Source of the DNA: Patescibacteria group bacterium
GTDB lineage: Bacteria; Patescibacteriota; Patescibacteriia; Patescibacteriales; WJLG01
Assembly: GCA_028707065.1 (NCBI GenBank)
Contig: JAQTUZ010000004.1
Location: forward strand, 6,656 to 70,655
DNA length: 64,000 nt
Direction of reading: 5' to 3'
Each line of letters opens with the position of its first letter. Within the stretch, counting starts at the first letter, position 1. The notes below the pieces were generated by a model. The model saw nothing but the letters and a program-made list of their open reading frames with translations. It had not been told where the DNA came from and did not search any database. A program made the position numbers and the translations under genes. Below are positions 2,532-59,266 of the stretch, in pieces.

Positions 2532-3077
2532 TTAGTCGGAAGTAATTTTAAAGGCATCAAATTCCATGTCAATATCAAAATCAATTTTATTTTGGCTGAA
2601 TTTTTCTTCCAGCGGGACGTTGACGTTCTTGAGCCACGGCGCGTCTTTCAGGTTTTTTTCCAAATTAAGCAGATCGTCTCTGGTCATGGCCAACCCCCTC
2701 AGCTTAATGGTTTTCGCGTCCGAATCGATGTTTAAAAAAGACAAAGAAATATTATCCGGCATTAAAGCGGCGAGATGGCGGAGAATCCGCGCGTAGGAAA
2801 GATGGCTGTTTTCGATCTGGGCCACGGCCGCCATTTTTTCGTTTAATTCCCTGGCTTTGACATTGTAATCGGCGCTCGAAGCGTTGATCAATTTGGCCGT
2901 TTCCTGGCTTGATTGATAGATATTGGCAGAAAGCATTTTTTCCGCCGCAAAAACAATTACTCCCACGAGGATGGCGAGGATAAGCAAAATACTCTCTGCT
3001 TTGAGTAAGAGAAAATATAGCCGTTGATATTTAATTGTCTGTTTTGCTTCTTCAGCAAGCAAATTTAATCGAAGCAT
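2532..3077 (-). CDS. pilN: type IV pilus assembly protein PilN-like (fimbrial assembly)
   Basis: Characteristic N-terminus MLRLNLLAEE…, then a TM helix and a periplasmic domain. Lies between pilM and pilO. Confidence 0.65.
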   Translation of the reverse strand: MLRLNLLAEEAKQTIKYQRLYFLLLKAESILLILAILVGVIVFAAEKMLSANIYQSSQETAKLINASSADYNVKARELNEKMAAVAQIENSHLSYARILRHLAALMPDNISLSFLNIDSDAKTIKLRGLAMTRDDLLNLEKNLKDAPWLKNVNVPLEEKFSQNKIDFDIDMEFDAFKITSD

Positions 3078-3203
3078 ATTTAAGTTGGGGCAGTTTAAAT
3101 GTTTCCCTCCGCCCGTTTGCCAAAAGGTTGCGAGGGTCGGCGTCCGCCGGCGGGCGGATCATTCCGCGGCACGCGGGAACGCAAAATATTGCGTTCCTAC
3201 CAA

Positions 3204-4370
3204 TCATTCGTCAATAAAGATTCCGCGCAAGGCCAGGCCGATGGCCGTGGCATAGCAGAGGCTGACATCATGAGAAATTTTGATGGTTTTGCTTTCCTTG
3301 GCCTTGGTTTTTTTATTTTGTTCTTCGTCGAGAAAATCGGTGTTCAAACCGAAAGAGCGGTTAAATTGGCCAAAAAAATTTTTTTTGTTTCCCAGGAAAT
3401 TAACCAGGACATCGCCTCTGATCGTATTGATGCCGGTTTCCTTCCGGATCAGCTTGTCCAGATCTTTGATGTTGGCGCCGCCGCCGCATAAGATGATCTT
3501 TTCGATCGGCCCCCAGGCGGAAAAATGATGATTGAAAAAAGCCAGCGCTTCCGTGCATTTATCTTTCAGATCATCGGCCAGGTCGTCGATGATTTTTTTT
3601 GCCTCCGTTTCTTCGCTGTTATTTACCAGGCCGTAAAGGATTTTGACTTTTTCCGCCTGGGCATGATCGATCTCCAGCGCGGCGGCTATTTTTTGGGTTA
3701 TGGCTTCGCCGGAGATCGGCAGATTCACCGAGAAAAGAATGGTGTTTTTTGAATAAAAAGTGAGGCTGGCGTCAGTGGCGCCGATATCGACGATCGCACT
3801 ATTTTTATTAGCCGCGCCGCGGTAAGCCGGATTTTCCGATGACAAAAGACAGCGGCAAACGGAAATCGGTTCGGTTTCCACGACCGAGGCCAGAAGACGG
3901 CATTCTTTGAGCAATTCCTGATGGTCGTTGACTAATTTTTTGGGAGCGGCGCCGATCAAGACGAGATTCGAATGTCCGGAGTCGCCGATGATCTGCCAGT
4001 CGAATAACAAGTCGTCGATCGGCAGCGGAACGTGTTTTTCCAGCTCGCTCTTGACGGCCTTGTTTTTGTCCGAGCTTTGTTTGTCGATTTCCACGATTTT
4101 GAGAAAAGTTTTTCCTTCCGGCAGGCAAATTGCCGCCTCGCGGCCGGTAACTTTCCCCCACTCGGGATGAGCGACCAATTTTCTGATCGATTTAGCCAGC
4201 TCTTTCTGGTTGATGATCTCTCCGTTCGCCAAAAGACCCGGCGGAAGATCGATCTTTCCCAGGGCTTGGATTTTAATTTTTTTCCCCGTTTTTTTCAGCT
4301 GGACTAATTTTATCGATAAGTCGGAAATGTCCAGGCCGATCGGACTGGCGAAACCGCTAAGAAGTGACAT
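3204..4370 (-). CDS. pilM: type IV pilus assembly protein PilM (actin-like ATPase fold)
   Basis: 388 aa with PilM-type N-terminus (IGLDISDLSIKLVQLKK…) and later VDIGATDASL / ILCGGGANI phosphate-binding-like motifs. Confidence 0.8.
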   Translation of the reverse strand: MSLLSGFASPIGLDISDLSIKLVQLKKTGKKIKIQALGKIDLPPGLLANGEIINQKELAKSIRKLVAHPEWGKVTGREAAICLPEGKTFLKIVEIDKQSSDKNKAVKSELEKHVPLPIDDLLFDWQIIGDSGHSNLVLIGAAPKKLVNDHQELLKECRLLASVVETEPISVCRCLLSSENPAYRGAANKNSAIVDIGATDASLTFYSKNTILFSVNLPISGEAITQKIAAALEIDHAQAEKVKILYGLVNNSEETEAKKIIDDLADDLKDKCTEALAFFNHHFSAWGPIEKIILCGGGANIKDLDKLIRKETGINTIRGDVLVNFLGNKKNFFGQFNRSFGLNTDFLDEEQNKKTKAKESKTIKISHDVSLCYATAIGLALRGIFIDE

Positions 4371-4601: not shown

Positions 4602-6047
4602 TTATCGCACTTCCTGCCAGGAAAGGATGGTGTATTGGTCGGAGGTTTGAGGAAAGCTGGGCGGCGGCGAGTACAATAAGTGTTCGTCATAATTGATATT
4701 TCTGATCTGATAGCCGGTGCCGCCGACGTAGGCAAAACCATAGCGCAGGCTGGAAGCGATCATGCCATTGAGGGTTAAGGTCGATTTGATAGCGTCGGAA
4801 CCGCAGTAGCTTGAGCCGTTAGCGTAATAATAGCGGCCGGCGCGCCCGGTTTCGGCGACTAGCGCGGCGTCAATGGTTAAAATATTCTGGCTATACAATC
4901 CGACATTGATATTATTTTGGGCGATCAGCGAAATGACATCGCGTCCGTCATCGTTGGTGTAGCGCAGATTATTATTGATGGTAATGCTTTTTCGCGTGGC
5001 AGGGTCGTCGGGGAAAGCCGCCGCGGCAATGGTTACCCGGGCGGTATTGATCTGCCCCTCGACAAAAACATTATCCTCCAAAAAGATTATACCGTTGCCG
5101 GGGAAAGGATAGTTGCCCAAAAGAGTCTGCGTATTGACGCTCCAAGTGCCCCAGCCGGCTTGGTAGTTTCCGGCGTTAGTGCAGTTGCTTGACGGCGAGG
5201 CTTTGAGGACGGTGACTTGATAGAGGTCGAAGGTGTCATTGGTTTTTAAGATCAGATTATAACCCATGGCGCCGGAACCGGCGCGATAAAAACCATTGGC
5301 GACGGCGTCGGTTTTCATCTGCGCCAGATCAGCGGTCAGTCCGGTAAAGTCCACCGCTGGCACGGGAAATTGCCGGCCGGCCACAAAGACATCGGGTCGA
5401 TTGGGGACGGAAGCGGGGGGCACTGGATCGTACGAGCCGTGATGAGTGTAGACGCCGAACTCGTTTGATTTTATGTCAGAGTCATTATCGTAATACTGGG
5501 TCAGGGCGCTGGTGACCAGATTATAGGCGATGCCGTCGAAATGGATGCCTTTATTGGAACTGATCGGGCCCTGGACTATCGTGCCCTCGCCAAAGCGCAT
5601 ATTATCATTGGCGACGACGGCGAATTTGGCCAGCGAAGGCTTGGCCATTTTAGTTTCGATCACTCTTGAACCATGAAAATCACTGATAGTTTTTCCCGTC
5701 GAACGAACCGTGACAATGCTCGAGCCGATCAGCGGCGGCGTGATAGCCAGAGAAAAACTGCCGACCAGACCCCCGGCTTTATTATAAAATTGATGGACAT
5801 AAGGCCCTGGTCCGGCCGTGCCGTCTTGATAATCGGTCGGGGCGTGCGCCAAATGCCAGCGATAATATTCGCTGCCTGATTCGGCGATTTGAAAAGCCGC
5901 TTCGCGCTTCACCGCTTGTTGCGCCGCGCGCAGATTGATCATGGCCCAGCTGACGATTCCGCCCATGATGATCATGGCGATCGTCCCGAAAACGAGCACC
6001 AGCGGCAAGGTTATACCGTCTTGGTTATTGATTATTTTTAGCCTCAT
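4602..6047 (-). CDS. PilX-N-like large pilus-associated protein
   Basis: N-terminus MRLKIINNQDGITLPLVLVFGTIAMIIMGGIV…QIAESG resembles the PilX N-terminal hydrophobic segment. No G|FTLxE prepilin site. Large beta-rich C-terminal region. ATG at 6047 is preferred over TTG at 6068. Confidence 0.55.
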   Translation of the reverse strand: MRLKIINNQDGITLPLVLVFGTIAMIIMGGIVSWAMINLRAAQQAVKREAAFQIAESGSEYYRWHLAHAPTDYQDGTAGPGPYVHQFYNKAGGLVGSFSLAITPPLIGSSIVTVRSTGKTISDFHGSRVIETKMAKPSLAKFAVVANDNMRFGEGTIVQGPISSNKGIHFDGIAYNLVTSALTQYYDNDSDIKSNEFGVYTHHGSYDPVPPASVPNRPDVFVAGRQFPVPAVDFTGLTADLAQMKTDAVANGFYRAGSGAMGYNLILKTNDTFDLYQVTVLKASPSSNCTNAGNYQAGWGTWSVNTQTLLGNYPFPGNGIIFLEDNVFVEGQINTARVTIAAAAFPDDPATRKSITINNNLRYTNDDGRDVISLIAQNNINVGLYSQNILTIDAALVAETGRAGRYYYANGSSYCGSDAIKSTLTLNGMIASSLRYGFAYVGGTGYQIRNINYDEHLLYSPPPSFPQTSDQYTILSWQEVR

Positions 6048-6219
6048 AATATGATGCGAATACAACAAATTTTACGCGAATACAGCGAATAGATTTAACG
6101 AATTTTTTGGAGTAATTCGATAAGTAATTTGTAGTATTCGCGTCCGTTATTACTAATTCGTATGAGCCGCATTCGTAGTGCGGCGGACAAATCCGTAGTA
6201 TTCGTATTATGCGCCCAGC

Positions 6220-6843
6220 TTATAAATTATCCTTCAAATTCCTGATCGAGACTTGCGTGGAAAATCCCATCGCGGCCGGCGGCTGACTTGGATCATGATC
6301 GATCAGCACGTTTATTTTGATCAGCCGCACGGCGGAAATATTTATCGGCAGTGTCAGCGGAGCGGTCGTTCCGTCATAGGAGCTGTCATAGTAAGAAAAG
6401 ATCGGCGTTGCCGCCGGATTGACCACGTCGTTGATCAGGGCGGATGTTTTTTCATTGGCCGGATTATAAATCGGCGGATTGCCGGTCGGCTCGATGACCC
6501 CGATCCTTAAAATTTTGCCGCTCAAAAAATAGCGGATTTTTTCTTTTAAGCCGTCACGGTCGACATCCGAATAAAAAGAGAAATAAGTCGAGCTGGCGGT
6601 ATCAATAGTGTAGGCGCCGGCAGCCGATGGCGAAGCGCTGCGGATGTTAGCCAGCATCGAAGTAAAAGCGGCTCGAACTTCCATTTGGGCGTTAAGATTG
6701 CCGGTCAAAGCGTCGTTAGTTTTGATCGTATCGTTATATAAAGTTAAAGATCCCTGCAGGAGTATTAAAAAAATAAACATCGCGGCGAGCGTTTCCGCCA
6801 GCGTAAAGCCGGAAGATGATTTAATCGGCGGAAATCTGAACAT
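6220..6843 (-). CDS. prepilin-type N-terminal cleavage/methylation domain pseudopilin
   Basis: Class III signal MFRFPPIKSSSG|FTLAETLAAMFIFLILL, with Glu at +5. Confidence 0.75.
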   Translation of the reverse strand: MFRFPPIKSSSGFTLAETLAAMFIFLILLQGSLTLYNDTIKTNDALTGNLNAQMEVRAAFTSMLANIRSASPSAAGAYTIDTASSTYFSFYSDVDRDGLKEKIRYFLSGKILRIGVIEPTGNPPIYNPANEKTSALINDVVNPAATPIFSYYDSSYDGTTAPLTLPINISAVRLIKINVLIDHDPSQPPAAMGFSTQVSIRNLKDNL

Positions 6844-50744: not shown

Positions 50745-51002
50745 GGCGTACTCCTTTGTGGATTGTGATGCCCTATTTTTGTAGGGCTGGTGTATGGGTT
50801 TGTTTAAATAACATTCTGTTTTATTCTCGATGACTATATCATAGCATAAATATAAAATTATGTCAAGAGTTTTGGCAAGAAAAAAGATGAAAAAATGGCA
50901 TTTATTATTTAAAATTAGCTAAGTAATTGTTAATGGCTGGCTAATATTAAATAAGAAACGTTATATCAATATTGTCAATTTTACTGGTTATTTAACATTA
51001 TA

Positions 51003-51074
51003 TTAGCGTCGCAGTCCGCGGCGGCTTGTCCCGAGTTTGCCGAGGGAAGACTGCGACGAGGCTAATATTTTTTT
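51003..51074 (+). promoter_or_regulatory. long terminator-like hairpin with T-run in the leader of the sigma-factor operon
   Basis: TTAGC-GTCGCAGTC…(32-nt loop)…GACTGCGAC-GA-GGCTAA followed by TATTTTTTT, ~60 nt before the preferred sigma-factor ATG. No upstream plus-strand gene is present for it to terminate. Confidence 0.45.
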
Positions 51075-51135
51075 AAAAAGAACAATCTCTGATATAATGA
51101 AGGTAATAAGTTACTCTCAGTTGCGTTATAACTTT

Positions 51136-51720
51136 ATGGCATCAACCGAAGCGTTTTTAGAAAATGAAGCCGAGCTCGTGGAAAAAGCCAAGGTCGATGA
51201 CCAGGCTTTTAGTATTCTTTACCAGCATTATTTTCCCAAGATTTACGGCTACGTGCAGAAGCGCGTCTCGGGCCGGGAAACGGCGGAAGATATTGTCTCG
51301 CAAGTTTTTTTAAAGGCTTTCGGCCATCGGCAAAAATATCAGAGCCGCGGTTTTAGTTTTGGCGCCTGGCTTTACCGCATCGCCACCAACGCCTTGACTG
51401 ATCATTATCGCCGCCAAGGCTCTCATCTCGAAGAAGCGATCACTGACGATTCGGCGCGCGAGCCGGCGGGCGAAAATTTAACCGAAGAATTGATCCAAAA
51501 AAGCGATCGGCAAGCGATCGAAAAAGTGCTTAACAAGATGCCCGAACGCTACCGGCAAGCCGTCTATCTGCGCTATTTCGCGGAAATGGAAATTTTCGAG
51601 ATCGCTGAAACTCTGCAGCTTCCCAAAACGCATGTTTCGGTGATCTTGCATCGCGCCCTGGATTGCTTCCGCCAAAAGGCGGACAAAGCCGGAATAAAAT
51701 TTTATCTGATAATTTTTTAA
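51136..51720 (+). CDS. sigma-70 family (ECF-type) RNA polymerase sigma factor
   Basis: Region 2 (FSILYQHYFPKIYGYVQKRV…AEDIVSQVFLKAF…WLYRIATNALTDHYRR) and region 4 (RYRQAVYLRYFAEMEIFEIAETLQLPKTHVSVILHRAL). The start could instead be 51097. Confidence 0.85.
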   Translation: MASTEAFLENEAELVEKAKVDDQAFSILYQHYFPKIYGYVQKRVSGRETAEDIVSQVFLKAFGHRQKYQSRGFSFGAWLYRIATNALTDHYRRQGSHLEEAITDDSAREPAGENLTEELIQKSDRQAIEKVLNKMPERYRQAVYLRYFAEMEIFEIAETLQLPKTHVSVILHRALDCFRQKADKAGIKFYLIIF

Positions 51721-51723
51721 TAT

Positions 51724-54700
51724 ATGGAACAAGAATTAAATCCAAACCAAGGCCAAGACCTGGCTGGGCGTAATAAAGAGGATGAGGCAGCGTTATTAAA
51801 GGCAGAGGAAAAAATTAAAAACCTCGCTTTTAAAGACGAACCCGCTACGCCGGATTTCCAGGAAAATTTGCAAAATCGGATTTTGGCGGCGCGCCATCGT
51901 CATTTTTCTATGTCCGAATTTTTAAACAAGCTCGCCAAAGGATTGATTTTTATGTTTGACACCAAGGCTTTTGTCCCGGCCGTGGCCGTTTTTTTGATCA
52001 TTGCCGTCGGCTTGAGCCTGACCATGCCCTGGCTGCCGCGGCAAGCGGGCGTTAATAATCCCTGGGGGAAGATCTCCCAATTGGTTATCAACCCGGCCTA
52101 CGCGCAGGATAATTTTTCCGCCGAGGCGACCATTTCCGACAGCTTGGGCGTTGGCGCCGATACGGCTTTTATCATTAAAAGCAAAGAGGCGATTGACGAG
52201 CAAACTCTGCGGGCGAACATAACTTTACAACCGACGACCGAATTTTCCTTAACCAAGATCGATGATCATACTTATCAAGTAATTCCGGCGCAAGCTTTGG
52301 CGGCCAAGAAAGTTTATAGCTTGAAGATCGCCAGCGCTTATGTCGATCAAAGCGGCGCCACCGTCGAGCGCGATTATTCCTGGGCCTTCCAGGTCAAAGA
52401 TATTTTTAAGGTTTTGAATTCGATCCCGGGCAATCAGGCCAATGGCGTGCCGTTGGATGCCGGAATTGAAGTGACTTTTTCCAACGAAAACTTCAGCAAT
52501 TACGAACAAGCGTTCAAGATCGAGCCGGCCATTGCCGGGCGTTTTGAGATTCACAAGCGCACTTTGGTTTTTGTGCCCAAAGCTTTGGAGGCGGGGATGA
52601 TCTATACCGTGACCATCAATAAAGATTTGCTGAAAGTTACGGGGAGCGAAGCCAAGCTCGCGGAAAATTATGTCATTCAATTTGAAACCGATCCGGCCGG
52701 AAAAAAACGCGGCGAGTATTCCGAATTCAATTTCCAAAATAATTTTAACGAGATCTATACCGAACGCGCGCCGGCGCTGGCTGTCAATCTATACAACATC
52801 AAACAGGAAACTTTTGCCGTCGAAGTTTACGCATTTTCCGGCGCGGACGGATTTATTGCCGCCCTGGAAAAGTCGCAAAAAATTCCCTATTGGGCGCAGT
52901 ACAATCGCGCTGTCTACAATACCGACGTTTCCGCCTTGACTAAAGTTTCCTCGTTTTCCATTCCTTTGTCGCCTTTTGGCTACAACAAATACTTGGTGTT
53001 TCCCGACAAGATCGCCAAGGGTTTTTATGTCGTTCAGGTCAATATCAACGGCGTTTATCTTCAGACATTTATGGAGGTTTCCGATTTGACCAATTATACG
53101 ACCGTGACTGATACCAATACTTTGGTTTGGCTCAACAATATCAAAACCAAAGGACCGGCGGCCGGGGCGAAGGTAAAAATTATCGGCACGGACAAGCAGA
53201 CGGTTACCGGAAGCGACGGAACGGCCGTGATGCCGACCAGCTGGCTGTCTGCCGGCACCACCAGCGACCGCACTTACTTGCTGATCGACGCGGGAGAAAA
53301 AACGATCGTGCCGATCAATTTCAATTATCAAAACACCGCGCCAACGGGCGTCATGCCTTTGAGCGCCGCTTCTAAATTCTGGTATTATTTTTATACCGAT
53401 CGGATGACTTACCAGCCGGGCGACACGGTCAGCTATTGGGGCTTTGTCAAACCACGGGAAGGAGTGAAAAGCTCTTCGACGGTCACGATCAAATTATTCG
53501 GCTGGCAAAGTTATTACGATTATTACAATGACCCGGTGCCGCTCTTGCAAACCGCGGCGCAGCTTGATCCTAACTTTACTTTTACCGGCAAGATCGATCT
53601 GGGGCGTTTATCCGCCGGGTATTATTATTTGGAATATTTTATCGGCGACCAGATGATCGGCAGCCGCGGTTTGAACATCGAGAACTATGTCAAACCGGCT
53701 TATAAAGTGGAGGCGAACGCCGACCAGCACGCGGTTTTTGCGGGGCAGACCCAGTCGATCGCGGTCAAGGCCAGCTTTTTCGAAGGCACGCCGGTTCCTA
53801 ATCTGGCTTTAACTGACCCGAACGATAACGGGCAATTAAAAACCAACGCTTTGGGCGAAGCGATCAAAACTTTTAAGGTCGATCCGGTTTCCGGCGACTA
53901 CGGCAGCAACTGCAATTATTTTTATCCGGTCGCGTCCGAGGAAGCCGATATTTCCGCCAGCGCTTGCTACACTGTTTTCAATTATAGCGTCGTCCCCAAG
54001 GGGGAACTGGTGAAAACGGACGGAGCCGATCAGGCGAAATTGCAATTAAACGTGAAAAAGGTGGATATCGCCAAAGCCAACGTGGTCGGGGCGACCGAAG
54101 ATCAATTCTTGCACGAAGCCGCTCCGGGCATGCCCGTAACCGTTTCGGTCACGGAAATTTCTTATCAGGCCGTTTCCACCGGACAGTATTATGATTTCTT
54201 CAATAAGATCGTGCGTAATACCTATCGCTACAATGAGATCAGAAATAATATCGCCTCGGCCAAGGGCAAAACCGATTCGGCCGGCCAATACCAGTATTCA
54301 TTTCCGATCAAGCCGAAAAACAGTTATGAAGTCAATGTCACGATCAAGGATGTTAACGGCCAGGATATCAATGAGCGATATTATATCTATTACAGCCAGT
54401 ATAATTTTGACGATCAAAGCGATTATTATAATTTGGGATTCAAAGATCAGAAGAAAACGGATTTTTCCTTGGGCGAACAGGTGCAGATCCAATATAAGAA
54501 TAAGGATCAGCTCTTGCCTGTTGCCCCCGGCCATTATCTTTTCTATCGCCTGTTCAAAGGATTGGTGGATTATCAGATCGGCGGCAGCGCGGAATATAAT
54601 TTCAATTTTACCGACCGCTTCTTGCCCGGCGTGTACGTGATGGGAGTTTATTTTGACGGTGAAACTTACCATCGGCCGGGAAGTTACGGTTATTGGGAGT

Positions 54701-57297
54701 CATATTCCCCCGGGCTGTATGTGCCTTTCAAGCAAACCGACCGGGAATTAAAAGTCGAGGTGACGCCGGATAAAGACAAATATCAGCCGGGAGGCGAGGT
54801 GAAGTTGGCTGTCAAAGTTACCGACAAATCCGGCAAGCCCGTGGCGGCGAGCGTCAATCTTAATCTGGTTGACGAGTCTTATTACGCGATCTATCCGGAA
54901 AACGTCGATGCCCTGGGAGGATTATACGGCAATCGGGTCGAGGACGGCGAGTTAGTGACTTATATTTCCAATCCGGCGCCGGCGCTTGGCGCCGAAGTCG
55001 CGGAAAGGGGCGGCTGTTTTCTCGCGGGCACCAAAATAACCATGGCCGACCGGTCGCTTAAAAATATCGAAGATGTTAAAATCGGCGACGAGGTGCTTAC
55101 CTTTACCAATGAAACGGCGCGGAGTTTGGTGGCGGGAAAAGTAACCAAGACCTATGTCCACGAAGTCGGCGAGTATTTGATCATTAATGATAAATTAAAA
55201 ATCACTCCGATCCACCGCGTTTTCTTGAACGGCCAATGGCGGATGATCGGCGAAGCCAAGGTCGGCGACTGGCTTTTGGACGAGCAAGGCGAAAAAGTTA
55301 AGATTGCCAAGATCGAGGACCGCCGCGGTCTGTTCAAAGTTTATAATCTGACGATCGAGCCTTATCATACTTTTTTTGCCGAAGGTTTTTATGTCCATAA
55401 TGATAAAGGCGGCGGCGTGCGTTCGCTGTTCGTGGATACGGCCGTGTTTATGAACGTCAACACCGGCGCTGATGGCGCGGCAATCGCCGCCTTCAAGCTG
55501 CCGGATAATATCACTTCCTGGCGCGTGACCGCGCAAGCTTTAAGCGGCGATCTTTACGCCGGCGACAAGGTCATCAATCTCAAATCGTCTCTGCCGGCCT
55601 TCGTCAACACCACTTTCGCCAAAGAATATTTAACGGTCGATAAGCCGATCGTAAAAGTGCGGGCTTTCGGCGACGCGCTGCGCGATAATGATCCGGTGCA
55701 ATTCAAAATGGACGCGCCGACTTTGAATTTTTCGAGCACGACCGTCGGCCAGGCCTTTGTTGCTTCCTATTTTAAGCTCCCGCCATTGGCGATCGGCGAG
55801 CACTCGATCACCACGGCGATCAAAGCCGGCGGCAACCAGGACGCGGTTTTGGAAAAAGTGAAGGTGCTCGATACTCGTTTTAAAGAAACCAAAACCCAGT
55901 TCTATGAATTATCGCCGGGCCTTAAAGCGGCCGGGGCGCCCGATGGCCAGACTAATTTGATTTTCAGCGACAAAAACCAAGGCCGATTCTACGGCCAGCT
56001 TTCCTATTGTTTCTTTTGTTCGGGCGGCGATCGGGTCGATCAAAAATTGGCCCGGGTCGTATCGGCCGATCTCTTGAAGAAATATTTCGGCGAAGAACCC
56101 TTTAACCCGGAAACTTTTAACGGGGCGATGTATCAAACCGATGACGGCGGCGTCGCTTTGCTGCCCTATGCTTCTTCGGATTTTGAATTGTCAGCCAAGG
56201 TCGCTTTTGTCGCCGGAGATTATTTCGATAAGACCCGGCTGACCAATTATTTTTACAAGATTTTGACGGCCGATGATTCGACCCGCGAACAAGTCGGGGT
56301 TTCTCTTTTCGCCTTGAGCGGTTTGGGCGAACCGATCTTGTCGCCGGCGGAAAATTTCGCCGCGCTGCCCGATCTCACCGCTAAGGAAAAATTGTATATC
56401 GGCATTGCCCTGAATCATTTGGGCGACGCGGAAACGGCGCGCGCTATCTATTCGGCGGTAATAAAAGACAAAGGAGAAAAATTAGATCCTTATCTGCGGG
56501 TCAAAGTTTCGGATTCCAACGATGAGATTTTGGCGGCGACCTCGCTGGCGGCGATCTTGGCGGGCGGGCTCTTAATTCCCGATCATGAACAATTATGGAA
56601 TTACGCGGAAAGTAATTATACCCGGAATATCTCGATTGATCTGGAAAAGCTGGCCTATGTTTCCGAAACTTTGCCCAAACTTACTCCGGGCGAAGTATCC
56701 TTTACCATCAATCTGCCCGGAAGAAAAATCGACAAAACTCTCTCGCGCGGCGAAAGTTTCCGCCTGAAAATCGAACCGGCTGATCTGGGAGTGATTTCAT
56801 TCTCCAATATCAAAGGCCAGGTCGGCTTGACCAGTTCTTACCAGGCGCGCGAAGCCAATATCGCGCCTCGTGATGATTCTTATGTTTCCTTGCGGAGAGA
56901 ATACTATGTCAACGGCGTTAAGACCAATACCTTCAAAGAAAGCGACTTGGTGGAGATCAGGATGTACCCGTCCTTCAAACCCGGCGCCTTAAATTATGGT
57001 TATCAAATTACCGATCTGCTCCCTTCCGGGTTGAGCGTGATGACCAATCTTTATTCGCGCGGCATGAATTACTCCTGCAGCAATTATTATCCTTACGAAG
57101 TTAACGGGCAGACGGTTAAGTTCTCGATCTGGAAGGACTGGAATAAAGGTTCATATTGCCATACGGATTATTTCAGTTATTTCGCCCGCGTCGTTAATCC
57201 GGGCGAATACCGGGCCGAATCGGCCGTGATCCAGTCGTTCGAGGCAAGCACCGTCAAGAATTATTCCGGCGCGAATACGGTGTTGATCGAAAAATAA
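51724..57297 (+). CDS. membrane-anchored alpha-2-macroglobulin-like protein (1857 aa) with an inserted Hint domain
   Basis: Starts 4 nt after the sigma-factor stop. N-terminal ~80 aa, then a TM helix (AFVPAVAVFLIIAVGLSLTM). MG-type domains (FYTDRMTYQPGDTVSYWGFV; VEVTPDKDKYQPGGEVKLAVKVTDKSGKPVAASVNLNLVDESYYAI). A2M block (VRSLFVDTAVFMNV…FKLPDNITSWRVTAQA). I saw no CxEQ thioester motif. Confidence 0.8.
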   Translation: MEQELNPNQGQDLAGRNKEDEAALLKAEEKIKNLAFKDEPATPDFQENLQNRILAARHRHFSMSEFLNKLAKGLIFMFDTKAFVPAVAVFLIIAVGLSLTMPWLPRQAGVNNPWGKISQLVINPAYAQDNFSAEATISDSLGVGADTAFIIKSKEAIDEQTLRANITLQPTTEFSLTKIDDHTYQVIPAQALAAKKVYSLKIASAYVDQSGATVERDYSWAFQVKDIFKVLNSIPGNQANGVPLDAGIEVTFSNENFSNYEQAFKIEPAIAGRFEIHKRTLVFVPKALEAGMIYTVTINKDLLKVTGSEAKLAENYVIQFETDPAGKKRGEYSEFNFQNNFNEIYTERAPALAVNLYNIKQETFAVEVYAFSGADGFIAALEKSQKIPYWAQYNRAVYNTDVSALTKVSSFSIPLSPFGYNKYLVFPDKIAKGFYVVQVNINGVYLQTFMEVSDLTNYTTVTDTNTLVWLNNIKTKGPAAGAKVKIIGTDKQTVTGSDGTAVMPTSWLSAGTTSDRTYLLIDAGEKTIVPINFNYQNTAPTGVMPLSAASKFWYYFYTDRMTYQPGDTVSYWGFVKPREGVKSSSTVTIKLFGWQSYYDYYNDPVPLLQTAAQLDPNFTFTGKIDLGRLSAGYYYLEYFIGDQMIGSRGLNIENYVKPAYKVEANADQHAVFAGQTQSIAVKASFFEGTPVPNLALTDPNDNGQLKTNALGEAIKTFKVDPVSGDYGSNCNYFYPVASEEADISASACYTVFNYSVVPKGELVKTDGADQAKLQLNVKKVDIAKANVVGATEDQFLHEAAPGMPVTVSVTEISYQAVSTGQYYDFFNKIVRNTYRYNEIRNNIASAKGKTDSAGQYQYSFPIKPKNSYEVNVTIKDVNGQDINERYYIYYSQYNFDDQSDYYNLGFKDQKKTDFSLGEQVQIQYKNKDQLLPVAPGHYLFYRLFKGLVDYQIGGSAEYNFNFTDRFLPGVYVMGVYFDGETYHRPGSYGYWESYSPGLYVPFKQTDRELKVEVTPDKDKYQPGGEVKLAVKVTDKSGKPVAASVNLNLVDESYYAIYPENVDALGGLYGNRVEDGELVTYISNPAPALGAEVAERGGCFLAGTKITMADRSLKNIEDVKIGDEVLTFTNETARSLVAGKVTKTYVHEVGEYLIINDKLKITPIHRVFLNGQWRMIGEAKVGDWLLDEQGEKVKIAKIEDRRGLFKVYNLTIEPYHTFFAEGFYVHNDKGGGVRSLFVDTAVFMNVNTGADGAAIAAFKLPDNITSWRVTAQALSGDLYAGDKVINLKSSLPAFVNTTFAKEYLTVDKPIVKVRAFGDALRDNDPVQFKMDAPTLNFSSTTVGQAFVASYFKLPPLAIGEHSITTAIKAGGNQDAVLEKVKVLDTRFKETKTQFYELSPGLKAAGAPDGQTNLIFSDKNQGRFYGQLSYCFFCSGGDRVDQKLARVVSADLLKKYFGEEPFNPETFNGAMYQTDDGGVALLPYASSDFELSAKVAFVAGDYFDKTRLTNYFYKILTADDSTREQVGVSLFALSGLGEPILSPAENFAALPDLTAKEKLYIGIALNHLGDAETARAIYSAVIKDKGEKLDPYLRVKVSDSNDEILAATSLAAILAGGLLIPDHEQLWNYAESNYTRNISIDLEKLAYVSETLPKLTPGEVSFTINLPGRKIDKTLSRGESFRLKIEPADLGVISFSNIKGQVGLTSSYQAREANIAPRDDSYVSLRREYYVNGVKTNTFKESDLVEIRMYPSFKPGALNYGYQITDLLPSGLSVMTNLYSRGMNYSCSNYYPYEVNGQTVKFSIWKDWNKGSYCHTDYFSYFARVVNPGEYRAESAVIQSFEASTVKNYSGANTVLIEK
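55015..55401 (+). other. Hint / bacterial-intein-like (BIL) domain, 129 aa, no endonuclease
   Basis: CFLAGTKI (block A), ITPIH (block B TxxH), VYNLTIEPYHTFFAEG (block F), FYVHN (block G). The next residue is Asp. Confidence 0.8.
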
Positions 57298-57307
57298 ATC
57301 TTATCTT

Positions 57308-59266
57308 ATGGCGGGAAGAAGGATCATCATTTTAATTTTTGTTTTAGGCGCATCGGCGGTCATCTTGGCCGCCGGTGCGTTTGTATTGGAGAAAAAGAAT
57401 TTTTCCGCGGAAAAGGCGATCAGCCCGGATCGGCCGGCTAATGAAGCGGTGAATGAATCGGCGCATATTTTTCCTTATGATCGTAATCTTTTCAATTCAG
57501 CCATCAGTAAAAATTATCTTGAGCGAATGGCGACGAGCGGGCCGGTCATTGCCGGCCTGGTGCCGCATCATGAGTTGGCCGGGGATCTGGCCGCGGAATT
57601 TTTTTCCTCGCTGGCGCAAAAACAAAAAGTTAATAATTTCATTGTCATCGGACCCTTGCACTCGGATCAAGCGGTCGGCCCCGCGGTAAGCGGGCGGTTT
57701 ATCTGGGATGCCGGGTTTGGCCAGGTGGAAAATAATTATGAAATACTGGACGATCTGGTCGCGGCTCATTTGGTGGTTTATGACGAGAATGCGGTGCGGA
57801 GCGAGCACGCTCTTTATAATATGGCGCCGTTCATCGCCCATTATTTTCCGGAGGCGAAGATCGCGCCGATCGCCTTGACTTCGCGTAATTCTCCGGAACA
57901 ATGTTTCGCTTTGGCTCAGGCTCTGCAGAAATATCTGGCCCAAGGGGATACGGTGCTGGTCGCCTCGATCGATTTTTCCCATTATCTTCCGGCTGATCAA
58001 ACTCCGGCCAAAAATTTGCGAATGATCGAGTTGATAAAAAATAAGGATTACCAGACGATTGCCGGCCTGGCCAATGATTATTTGGATTCGCCCCCTTCGC
58101 TTATCACCTTGCTTAAGGCCGCTGATCTGTCGGATGCCGGCGTTAATATTTTAGCTTCGACCAATTCCGGAGAAATTACCGGGACGCCGGTTCTTTCTTC
58201 AACCAGCTATATCAGCGCCTTTTTTGCCGTCCCCCTCCTTTCAAATGAGTCTGTCCCCGCGAAGGCGGGGAAGGGGTCTGGGCCCGTCTCGGTTTTACCT
58301 ACAGCGTCCAGTAGTCCCTTGAAGCTGCTTTTTTTCGGCGACATTATGCTTGATCGCCAGGTCGGCGAAAAGATCAAGGCTTCGGGAAGCTTGGACTGGA
58401 TCTTCAAGGGCTTGAATTCGACCGGAATTTTTCAAGGCAATGATATTGTTTCCGCCAATCTGGAAGGCGCGGCCACTGATAATGGCGCGCATTATCCGCC
58501 GGCCTTGGTTTTTGATTTTGCTTTCGCGCCCAAGCTGGTCGGAGAGCTCGCGAAATATAATTTTAATTATTTTAATCTGGCCAATAATCATTTAGCCGAT
58601 CAGGGCAAAAATGGTATAATAGAGACAGAGAAAAATCTTACTGATCTGGGTTTTGTTTTTGCCGGCTGCCAGGATCGCCAAGTCGGCGACTGCACGGCCA
58701 AAATTGTGGAGAAAAGCGGCCGCCAGATCGGGTTGATCGGCGCGAGCATGGTTTATGGCGCGCTTGATGAAAACCGCCTGATCGCCGAAGTAAAAAAGCT
58801 GGCCAGTTCCACCGATTTAGTGGCGGTGCAAATACATTGGGGAACGGAATACAAGCACGAGGCGGCGGCCAACCAAACCGTTTTGGCGCGCAAATTGATC
58901 GATGCCGGCGCTGATATCATCATCGGCCATCATCCGCATGTGGTCGGCGGGGTGGAACTATATAAAAATAAGCCGATTTTTTATTCGCTGGGGAATTTCG
59001 TTTTTGATCAGTATTTTTCTCTTGATACGCAGGAAGAGTTGGGAGTGAGGATAGCCGTAACCACCCCCAAACCCCTCCTTGGAAAGGAGGGGGGCGAGGG
59101 GAAAAATTTCCAGATCGATCTTTTGCCGATCAAATCGGAAGCCGGACGCTTGCGCCTGATGAATAACGCGGAGAAAGATAAATTTTTGACCAAGCTGGCG
59201 GGCTGGTCGATCGGCGATAAAAATTTTTTGTCGGAAGTCGGAGCGGGTAAAATAGTTATTGAATAA
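57308..59266 (+). CDS. fusion protein: Memo-like (AmmeMemoRadiSam B-type) N-domain plus CapA/PGA_cap metallophosphatase C-domain
   Basis: N-terminal TM helix. Memo-like blocks are GLVPHHELAG and ASIDFSHYLP. CapA-like blocks are LLFFGDIMLDR, ANLEGA, NLANNHLADQG, GHHPHVVGG and YSLGNFVFDQ. Confidence 0.7.
   Translation: MAGRRIIILIFVLGASAVILAAGAFVLEKKNFSAEKAISPDRPANEAVNESAHIFPYDRNLFNSAISKNYLERMATSGPVIAGLVPHHELAGDLAAEFFSSLAQKQKVNNFIVIGPLHSDQAVGPAVSGRFIWDAGFGQVENNYEILDDLVAAHLVVYDENAVRSEHALYNMAPFIAHYFPEAKIAPIALTSRNSPEQCFALAQALQKYLAQGDTVLVASIDFSHYLPADQTPAKNLRMIELIKNKDYQTIAGLANDYLDSPPSLITLLKAADLSDAGVNILASTNSGEITGTPVLSSTSYISAFFAVPLLSNESVPAKAGKGSGPVSVLPTASSSPLKLLFFGDIMLDRQVGEKIKASGSLDWIFKGLNSTGIFQGNDIVSANLEGAATDNGAHYPPALVFDFAFAPKLVGELAKYNFNYFNLANNHLADQGKNGIIETEKNLTDLGFVFAGCQDRQVGDCTAKIVEKSGRQIGLIGASMVYGALDENRLIAEVKKLASSTDLVAVQIHWGTEYKHEAAANQTVLARKLIDAGADIIIGHHPHVVGGVELYKNKPIFYSLGNFVFDQYFSLDTQEELGVRIAVTTPKPLLGKEGGEGKNFQIDLLPIKSEAGRLRLMNNAEKDKFLTKLAGWSIGDKNFLSEVGAGKIVIE

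Follow-up and report, generated by a model that had tools for sequence, protein, structure and literature searches.

Does the inner tail of a giant surface protein hold a sigma factor inactive? The question is raised by a stretch of 64,000 nucleotides (nt) from a Patescibacteria group bacterium (the window; GenBank assembly GCA_028707065.1, contig JAQTUZ010000004.1, positions 6,656 to 70,655 of the forward strand), in which the gene for a sigma factor of the extracytoplasmic function (ECF) type is directly followed by that for an 1857-residue protein of the alpha-2-macroglobulin (A2M) type, here called the giant. An initial annotation, made from the letters alone, had proposed that the N-terminus of the giant is an anti-sigma anchor and that autoprocessing of its exterior might be coupled to transcription. 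Here, we report a comparative analysis of the locus. With a probability of about 0.7, we read the two genes as an ECF sigma factor and its single-pass anti-sigma factor, the latter built from a two-helix module of ~60 residues, one transmembrane helix, and a 1750-residue A2M-like ectodomain; the inner tail of the giant very probably holds the sigma factor off. The features on which this reading rests are as follows.

ATG 51136 to stop TAA 51718-51720, + strand: sigma open reading frame (ORF), 194 amino acids (aa), ECF (group IV) sigma factor
51724..57297, + strand: giant ORF, 1857 aa, A2M-like
51724..51966, + strand: cytoplasmic N-terminal module, residues 1-81, putative sigma-binding anti-sigma segment
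51967..52026, + strand: single transmembrane helix, residues 82-101 (AFVPAVAVFLIIAVGLSLTM), from a hydropathy scan
52027..57297, + strand: ectodomain, A2M-like (Pfam Big_5, MG2, A2M_BRD, and A2M)

Sigma factor, module, and their relatives

The ORF coordinates confirmed the reported adjacency: between the sigma stop (51718-51720) and the giant ATG (51724) lie only the bases TAT, a 3-nt gap, and both ORFs are in the same frame. NCBI lists the two proteins under a Patescibacteria MAG. The start at 51136 fits, because sigma homologues measure 184 to 197 aa. Pfam detected Sigma70_r2 (68 bits) and Sigma70_r4_2 (43 bits) only, with r1 and r3 absent, and a score of 99.3 bits against TIGR02937 (cut-off, 42.9) places the protein among the ECF (group IV) factors. 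BldN (TIGR02952) is its best NCBIfam match, far under the equivalog cut-off (110.3 versus 206.45 bits), and the protein is not a member of that family. The nearest solved structure is Bacillus subtilis SigW (5wuq; E, 1e-16). The window’s sigma factor carries a hydrophobic C-terminal tail, GIKFYLIIF (51679-51717), which reads GIKFYLIIF, GIKFYFLTF, or GIKFFCFLF in the closest homologues and does not occur in more distant ones.

The topology initially proposed for the giant, about 80 cytoplasmic residues followed by one transmembrane helix and an ectodomain, also held, with 81 residues predicted inside and the helix at 82-101 as the sole strong hydrophobic segment (Kyte-Doolittle, 2.45). A second, weak hydropathy peak at residues ~1600-1620 (about 1.8) is read here as a buried ectodomain helix and not as a second membrane helix. 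The zinc-binding HxxxCxxC motif had been described as absent, and residues 1-81 indeed contain neither this motif nor any Cys. Within them, AlphaFold2 (AF2) predicted helices at 18-32, 43-58, and 63-71 with low to moderate confidence; helix A (~residues 18-35) and helix B (43-58) are referred to below.

Searching with the giant returned about 60 full-length relatives, with the Hint domain described below present or absent, and a scan at one genome per species gave 78 loci, spread over many classes of Patescibacteria as well as Chloroflexota and Clostridia. Every ORF of those loci was searched with the window sigma factor, and counts are based on those 68 in which 700 nt or more precede the giant. 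Start codons were assigned mechanically, and N-terminal types were drawn up by eye as groups A to E, group A being the window’s own.

An ECF sigma gene lies directly upstream of the giant, on the same strand, in 31/68 loci (Patescibacteria and Clostridia). The adjacency is not chance; its conservation, which the initial annotation had proposed to check, extends to the nine closest metagenomic sigma relatives, each of which (9/9) is followed by an A2M giant with a long N-terminus. The intergenic distance in the 31 linked loci runs from −17 to +60 nt, with a single value of +212 (L050), and the two genes often overlap, by 4 to 17 nt. Partners of more distant sigma relatives have Glyoxalase/VOC, FecR, or beta-propeller domains, or nothing known. 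In L082/L083, another sigma/A2M-giant pair has, ~600 nt upstream and in divergent orientation, a gene (5726-6397, minus strand) for a 223-aa protein with a weak match to RskA_C, the C-terminal domain of anti-sigma-K.

The inner tail co-occurs strictly with the sigma gene. All sigma-linked giants (31/31) have 34 or more cytoplasmic residues at the N-terminus (range, 34 to 106), versus 10/37 sigma-less ones (Fisher P = 5e-11, a value that overstates independence because the loci are phylogenetically related, which tempers our reading), and most of the 37 sigma-less giants begin with a signal anchor of 4 to 30 residues. The helix-B motif F-x3-[LF]-x3-[ILVM] is present in 21/31 linked N-termini and 0/37 unlinked ones.

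Syntenic close relatives are less affected by relatedness than these locus-wide counts. One of them, with a giant 75% identical to the window’s (L084), retains sigma gene and module, as does the P0004 contig. Another (L165; giant 64% identical) has lost both, amid the same neighbors as in the window: a T2SSE ATPase, translin, the giant, Memo/PGA_cap, and a Trp_Tyr permease. A third (L166; giant 69% identical) likewise has neither, and a MerR-type gene stands upstream, so that the regulator of the giant gene appears to be exchangeable; there, the MerR-family gene and a 96-codon ORF (2928-3955) fill the place upstream of the giant. The reverse exchange is seen in L079, a window-like neighborhood that retains the sigma gene (60% identical to the window’s), the module, and both promoter copies described below (P1 and P2). 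Its next gene encodes a 921-aa DUF3160 protein, and the BLASTP alignment of this protein with the window giant is limited to residues 1-60 (42% identity; E, 9e-12). The ectodomain has been swapped and residues 1-60 kept; therefore, the module travels with the sigma factor and not with the ectodomain, which, as far as such comparisons tell, is the behavior of an anti-sigma domain. A second DUF3160 gene (L080) overlaps its own sigma gene by 11 nt.

Constraint on the module points in the same direction. Helix B bears a conserved P-x-x-F-x3-L-x3-(I/L), and across 46 aligned modules (alignment A8), F45 is invariant, L49 nearly so, and L24 highly conserved (L24 is invariant in the smaller alignment A2). 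Between the window and L084, residues 26-81 comprise 34 identical codons, 11 synonymous changes, and 11 nonsynonymous changes; by this comparison, the region is translated, and purifying selection acts on it. Helix B also aligns with the N-termini of VOC-type partners of related ECF sigma factors (hhalign probability, 76%; E, 2e-5; 16 columns), and the partners of related sigma factors that share it have VOC domains or no known domain.

Homology searches with the module returned little. Giant residues 1-139 gave no match in a homologue search, and a phmmer search of 1.84 billion representatives with residues 1-81 yielded five, one being the giant itself and another a 122-aa protein aligned to residues 14-67 at 62% identity. 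The other three, weak and at internal positions of other proteins, look spurious. The module, judging from these searches, evolves too fast to be followed with single sequences.

Structure prediction was equivocal. Helix A rose in predicted local distance difference test score (pLDDT) from about 60 for the module alone to about 80 when fused to the sigma factor, and helix B went from about 72 to about 65. Foldseek confirmed the ECF fold, its list including RsbN-BldN, CnrH-CnrY, and NepR complexes, and placed the model nearer to anti-sigma-bound ECF structures (root mean square deviation, 10 to 12 Å) than to RNA-polymerase-bound ones (about 20 Å), which is weak evidence.

Several observations weigh against an anti-sigma function. 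The module has no anti-sigma family match in Pfam, NCBIfam (even at E = 10), or the PDB, and 0 of the 46 module sequences match an anti-sigma family. The class I anti-sigma domain (ASDI) is a three-helix bundle with a fourth helix, its zinc subclass carrying H-x3-C-x2-C; the module is shorter than this and has no class I sequence match (ASDI; zf-HC2 / RskA_N type). The fused sigma-module chain, modeled by AF2 from a sigma-only alignment, reached a predicted template modeling score (pTM) of 0.42, with the sigma domains confident. The positive-inside rule is indecisive for helix 82-101. Finally, translational coupling is not universal, the gap being as wide as 103 nt in L084 and reaching about 212 nt in L050.

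A rival view takes the sigma factor as a mere dedicated transcription factor of the giant operon and the extension as a nonbinding signal-anchor or targeting leader, which would account for a module without detectable similarity to known anti-sigma domains, for AF2 models of the fused chain and of the module alone that show no decisive difference, and for the 38 to 102 cytoplasmic residues of some sigma-less homologues. We nonetheless consider it improbable: an extension with the helix-B motif never occurs without an adjacent sigma gene (0/37), extension and sigma gene are lost jointly in syntenic relatives, the extension moves with the sigma factor onto a DUF3160 protein, and helix B recurs in soluble partners of related sigma factors, where no membrane targeting is needed.

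The initial proposal of an anti-sigma N-terminus thus stands as putative, well supported by comparative genomics through co-occurrence, joint loss, portability, purifying selection, and a shared helix motif, and falls short on any match to a known family. The giant gene is directly downstream of the sigma gene, co-oriented, and conserved there, and it encodes an N-in single-pass protein with a variable ectodomain, as anti-sigma factors do. By these traits, the module appears to work like an anti-sigma domain, and we do not file it under class I.

Ectodomain, Hint insertion, and candidate cleavage site

Two further features of the giant bear on how the sigma factor might be released.

55015..55401, + strand: Hint insertion, residues 1098-1226 (PT-HINT Pfam match 1111-1226, 56.7 versus a threshold of 27.7)
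52096..52104, + strand: A-Y-A, residues 125-127, followed by QDNF, candidate site-1 cleavage point

The ectodomain belongs to the A2M family by its Pfam scores (A2M_BRD, 36.9 versus a threshold of 22.7; A2M, 24.1 versus 21) and falls outside the thioester subgroup, C.EQ being found nowhere in the giant; compared by eye, GDRVDQ aligns where the thioester motif would be. Directly after the bait-region domain of this thioester-less protein comes the insertion, which begins at Cys1098 and ends at HN1225-1226. By its Pfam match and its end residues, it is a Hint/BIL-type domain. A splicing intein was ruled out, since the +1 residue is Asp, which offers no nucleophile, and the Hint domain is therefore unable to splice like an intein. 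As a matter of speculation, a thioester made by the Hint domain might stand in for the missing CxEQ thioester.

The functional version in the initial annotation gives a different account of the signal, in which Hint self-cleavage, A2M bait cleavage, or both would be what is passed to the sigma factor. Protease-triggered ectodomain loss is the usual trigger of single-pass anti-sigma factors, RseA, RsiW, and RsiV among them, and the insertion sits directly past the bait-region domain. We hold this account to be very improbable. The Hint domain is present in 27/31 linked and 24/37 unlinked loci and absent from the Clostridial linked giants, so its presence is independent of the sigma link; it was rejected as part of the signaling unit, and the coupling of autoprocessing to transcription put forward initially is not upheld. 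Sigma factor and module of the same kind are also found with a DUF3160 ectodomain, which lacks A2M and Hint domains, and the bait region, more than 900 residues from the membrane, would be too far away to create a site-2 substrate alone.

Nearer the membrane, the AYA|QDNF sequence (52096-52116, residues 125-131) may be a signal-peptidase site. It is an AXA site of signal-peptidase type ~26 residues outside the membrane helix; in alignment A1 (n = 55), position −3 is A in 39 sequences and V in 11, and position −1 is A in 52. The site is near-universal in the family, in sigma-linked and sigma-less members alike. By eye, ASA|W and AFA|S stand at a similar distance past the helix in the DUF3160 partners.

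Two predicted promoter copies and a proposed circuit

The likely promoter of this sigma factor is GTAA(T/C)-N16-CGTTA, of which the window holds three exact copies (0.07 expected). Two of them, with a candidate internal start, concern the sigma/giant pair.

51103..51129, + strand: P1, predicted cognate ECF promoter (GTAAT 51103-51107, 16-nt spacer, CGTTAT 51124-51129)
51770..51796, + strand: P2, second promoter-motif copy inside giant codons 16-25 (GTAAT 51770-51774, CGTTAT 51791-51796)
51910..51912, + strand: Met63, candidate start of a short form without both helices

P1 emerged from the search for an ECF-type promoter upstream of the sigma gene that the initial annotation had suggested. It ends 6 nt from the sigma ATG, which would leave the sigma mRNA with no leader or almost none; a Shine-Dalgarno sequence is absent from most genes of this genome. 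Ten relatives have the motif as well, between −29 and −33 relative to the sigma start. Group A upstream regions read GTAAT-N16-CGTTAT, ending 4 to 6 nt before the ATG; a GTAAC variant stands upstream of the real sigma start in L006, and CGTAAC-N16-CGTTAA is found upstream of the sigma gene in Clostridial relatives. Exact matches number 31 across the complete set of 166 loci, and all but two of them (29/31) fall at P1 or P2 positions; near the giant start, the motif occurs in 0/38 sigma-less loci.

P2 places GTAAT in R16-N17 and CGTTAT in A23-L24-L25, and 13/13 group A loci, DUF3160 partners included, have it between +34 and +67, counted from the partner gene's start. Its codons are always NGT AAT/C and, seven codons on, NCG TTA/G (the background NCG share of NCN codons is 0.10 to 0.44), and the residues that they encode vary (C/R/S-N and A/S/P-L). 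Fixed codons with varying residues mean that the constraint is on DNA and not on protein.

The least probable alternative, that the extension serves DNA or translation as a translated leader housing P2 and coupling the giant to sigma translation, its peptide being functionless, draws on the top positions of helix A ([CRS]N and [ASP]LL), which the P2 motif accounts for, and on the common start/stop overlaps of −4 to −17 nt, but the extension is also seen in groups B, C, D, and E, where a search for P2-like copies gave none, helix B (F45 and L49) is conserved at the protein level with synonymous variation, and it is common to other phyla and partner families.

From P2, transcription is predicted to start near 51803. 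Met63 is the first ATG, in any frame, past this start site; it lies 18 residues before the membrane helix, and a product begun there would resemble the sigma-less homologues. That P2 yields such a module-free short form is possible, at somewhat less than even odds. Four relatives have an in-frame ATG at the P2 start site itself (a P1-like geometry), whose product would keep helix B, and a module-free isoform is therefore not general. The conservation of Met63, once taken as evidence for an internal start, was withdrawn as such: Met63 is also conserved in VOC-type partners without P2, and its conservation is explained at the protein level. Both findings count against this part of our reading.

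With the giant as the anti-sigma factor, the system could operate as follows. Sigma factor and giant would be co-produced from P1 on a leaderless mRNA with the two genes 3 nt apart, and the module would tether the sigma factor, inactive, at the membrane. Removal of the ectodomain, via the candidate AYA|QDNF site or through attack by a foreign protease, would leave a stub to be degraded by intramembrane proteolysis, freeing the sigma factor. The freed sigma factor would recognize GTAA(T/C)-N16-CGTTA and fire both P1, as autoregulation, and P2, whose transcripts would carry the giant without its first ~26 codons together with the downstream Memo/CapA gene. Because the first AUG on the window’s P2 transcripts is that of Met63, they would encode a giant without the sigma-holding module. 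Gene order, topology, co-occurrence, portability of the module, and the two promoter-like motifs are observed, and from them we infer sigma binding, the release mechanism, and the use of P2 and Met63; protease encounter as the signal is a guess. A self-replenishing surface-defense circuit, in which the membrane-tethered trap is also the sensor, its loss frees the sigma factor, P2 makes a module-free trap, and output rises without resilencing, is an attractive but unlikely extension of this scheme.

Two features lie outside the sigma/giant pair.

57308..59266, + strand: Memo-like and PGA_cap (CapA) fusion gene (Pfam), starting 10 nt past the giant
6124-6149, + strand: third exact GTAAT-N16-CGTTA copy, in a 150-nt spacer between two minus-strand pilin-like genes

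The Memo/PGA_cap gene is probably in the same operon as the giant, and in 46/68 loci, Clostridia and Chloroflexota among them, the giant is directly followed by a homologue of it. Together, the two genes look like a conserved unit, much as A2M is paired with PBP1c in Proteobacteria. The third motif copy sits amid GCGAATAC/GTATTCG repeats and is followed by a 27-codon ORF at 6162; a transcript from it would run antisense into the gene at 6220-6843.

Upstream of P1, the interval 50972-51098 contains a sigma-70-like TTGTCA-N18-CATTAT. A GC-rich hairpin at about 51000-51068 (ΔG, −32.8 kcal/mol; z, −4.3), followed by a T-run, precedes P1, and an extended −10 element, TGATATAAT, was placed by eye past both at about 51090-51098. 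The hairpin is common to L084, where the fold is weak (z, −0.5), and absent from L079; it may be an attenuator. Rfam gave no match anywhere in the window. In L165, which has lost the sigma gene, GTAAT-N16-CGTCTA is retained 87 nt upstream of the module-less giant (3914-3940), which suggests that a similar sigma factor, encoded elsewhere, controls the gene or that the motif is what is left of P1.

Significance and known systems

The system would belong to a well-known kind, the ECF sigma factor with a single-pass anti-sigma factor. What would set it apart is an unrecognized two-helix module, an ectodomain of A2M-like or DUF3160 type, autoregulation of a leaderless sigma gene, and a cognate promoter within the anti-sigma codons. 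Full-text literature searches found no paper linking anti-sigma factors or sigma factors with macroglobulins, and searches on ECF factors in Patescibacteria and on DUF3160 found no precedent for this system. Searches on internal promoters in anti-sigma genes likewise found none, and the 2021 reclassification of ECF factors makes no mention, in its main text, of macroglobulins or of these phyla. That the literature searched lacks such reports does not establish novelty. If the self-replenishing circuit is real, the giant would be the first bacterial A2M-type protein in signaling and the pair the first ECF system whose embedded cognate promoter splits one gene into sensor and effector forms.

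Because the genomes of Candidate Phyla Radiation bacteria are tiny and their regulators few, a conserved sigma switch on a surface protein of 200 kDa probably points to something central in how they live on the surface of a host cell. The analysis also points to a putative anti-sigma module that domain libraries do not see, common to A2M and DUF3160 partners and with a helix B found in VOC-type partners too; it gives a predicted promoter specificity for an uncultured lineage and offers a case of a promoter kept inside coding sequence via codon choice. P2 bears, further, on a problem of sigma/anti-sigma operons, namely how they get around making more inhibitor when they are induced.

Like the bacterial A2Ms (ECAM/YfhM with PBP1c, and the YfaS type), the giant has MG-type Ig domains, a bait-region domain, and an A2M domain and is predicted to be anchored in the cytoplasmic membrane, facing outward. 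It differs from them in having no CxEQ, a signal-anchor helix in place of a lipid, a Hint insertion, and a gene paired with a Memo/CapA gene and not with that of a PBP. With the class II anti-sigma factors (CnrY and NepR) and RsbN-BldN, the system shares a small helical, putatively sigma-binding part and the lack of a zinc site, whereas the module has no similarity to any of them and the sigma factor is no member of the BldN family (110 versus 206).

In SigV-RsiV, the anti-sigma factor is itself the lysozyme receptor, and site-1 cleavage is made by signal peptidase. Here, too, the ectodomain would recognize the threat that the regulon counters, and an AXA site lies outside the membrane, but there is no sequence relationship, and the AXA site, ~26 residues from the helix, is also present in sigma-less homologues.

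SigW-RsiW of B. subtilis, with a class I single-pass anti-sigma factor subject to intramembrane proteolysis by PrsW and RasP, invites the most detailed comparison. In contrast to RsiW, the module consists of about two helices and lacks both a zinc motif and a Pfam match, and the giant adds a 1750-aa A2M-like ectodomain, a cognate promoter in the putative anti-sigma codons, and a sigma mRNA predicted to be leaderless. The likeness lies in the sigma factor, for which SigW is the closest solved structure, in the partner gene directly downstream, in the N-in single-pass form of its product, in the predicted autoregulation of the operon, and in the promoter: that of SigW, TGAAAC-N16-CGTA, is of the same type as GTAA(T/C)-N16-CGTTA, and the Clostridial CGTAAC-N16-CGTTAA resembles the SigW, SigX, and SigM promoters of B. 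subtilis.

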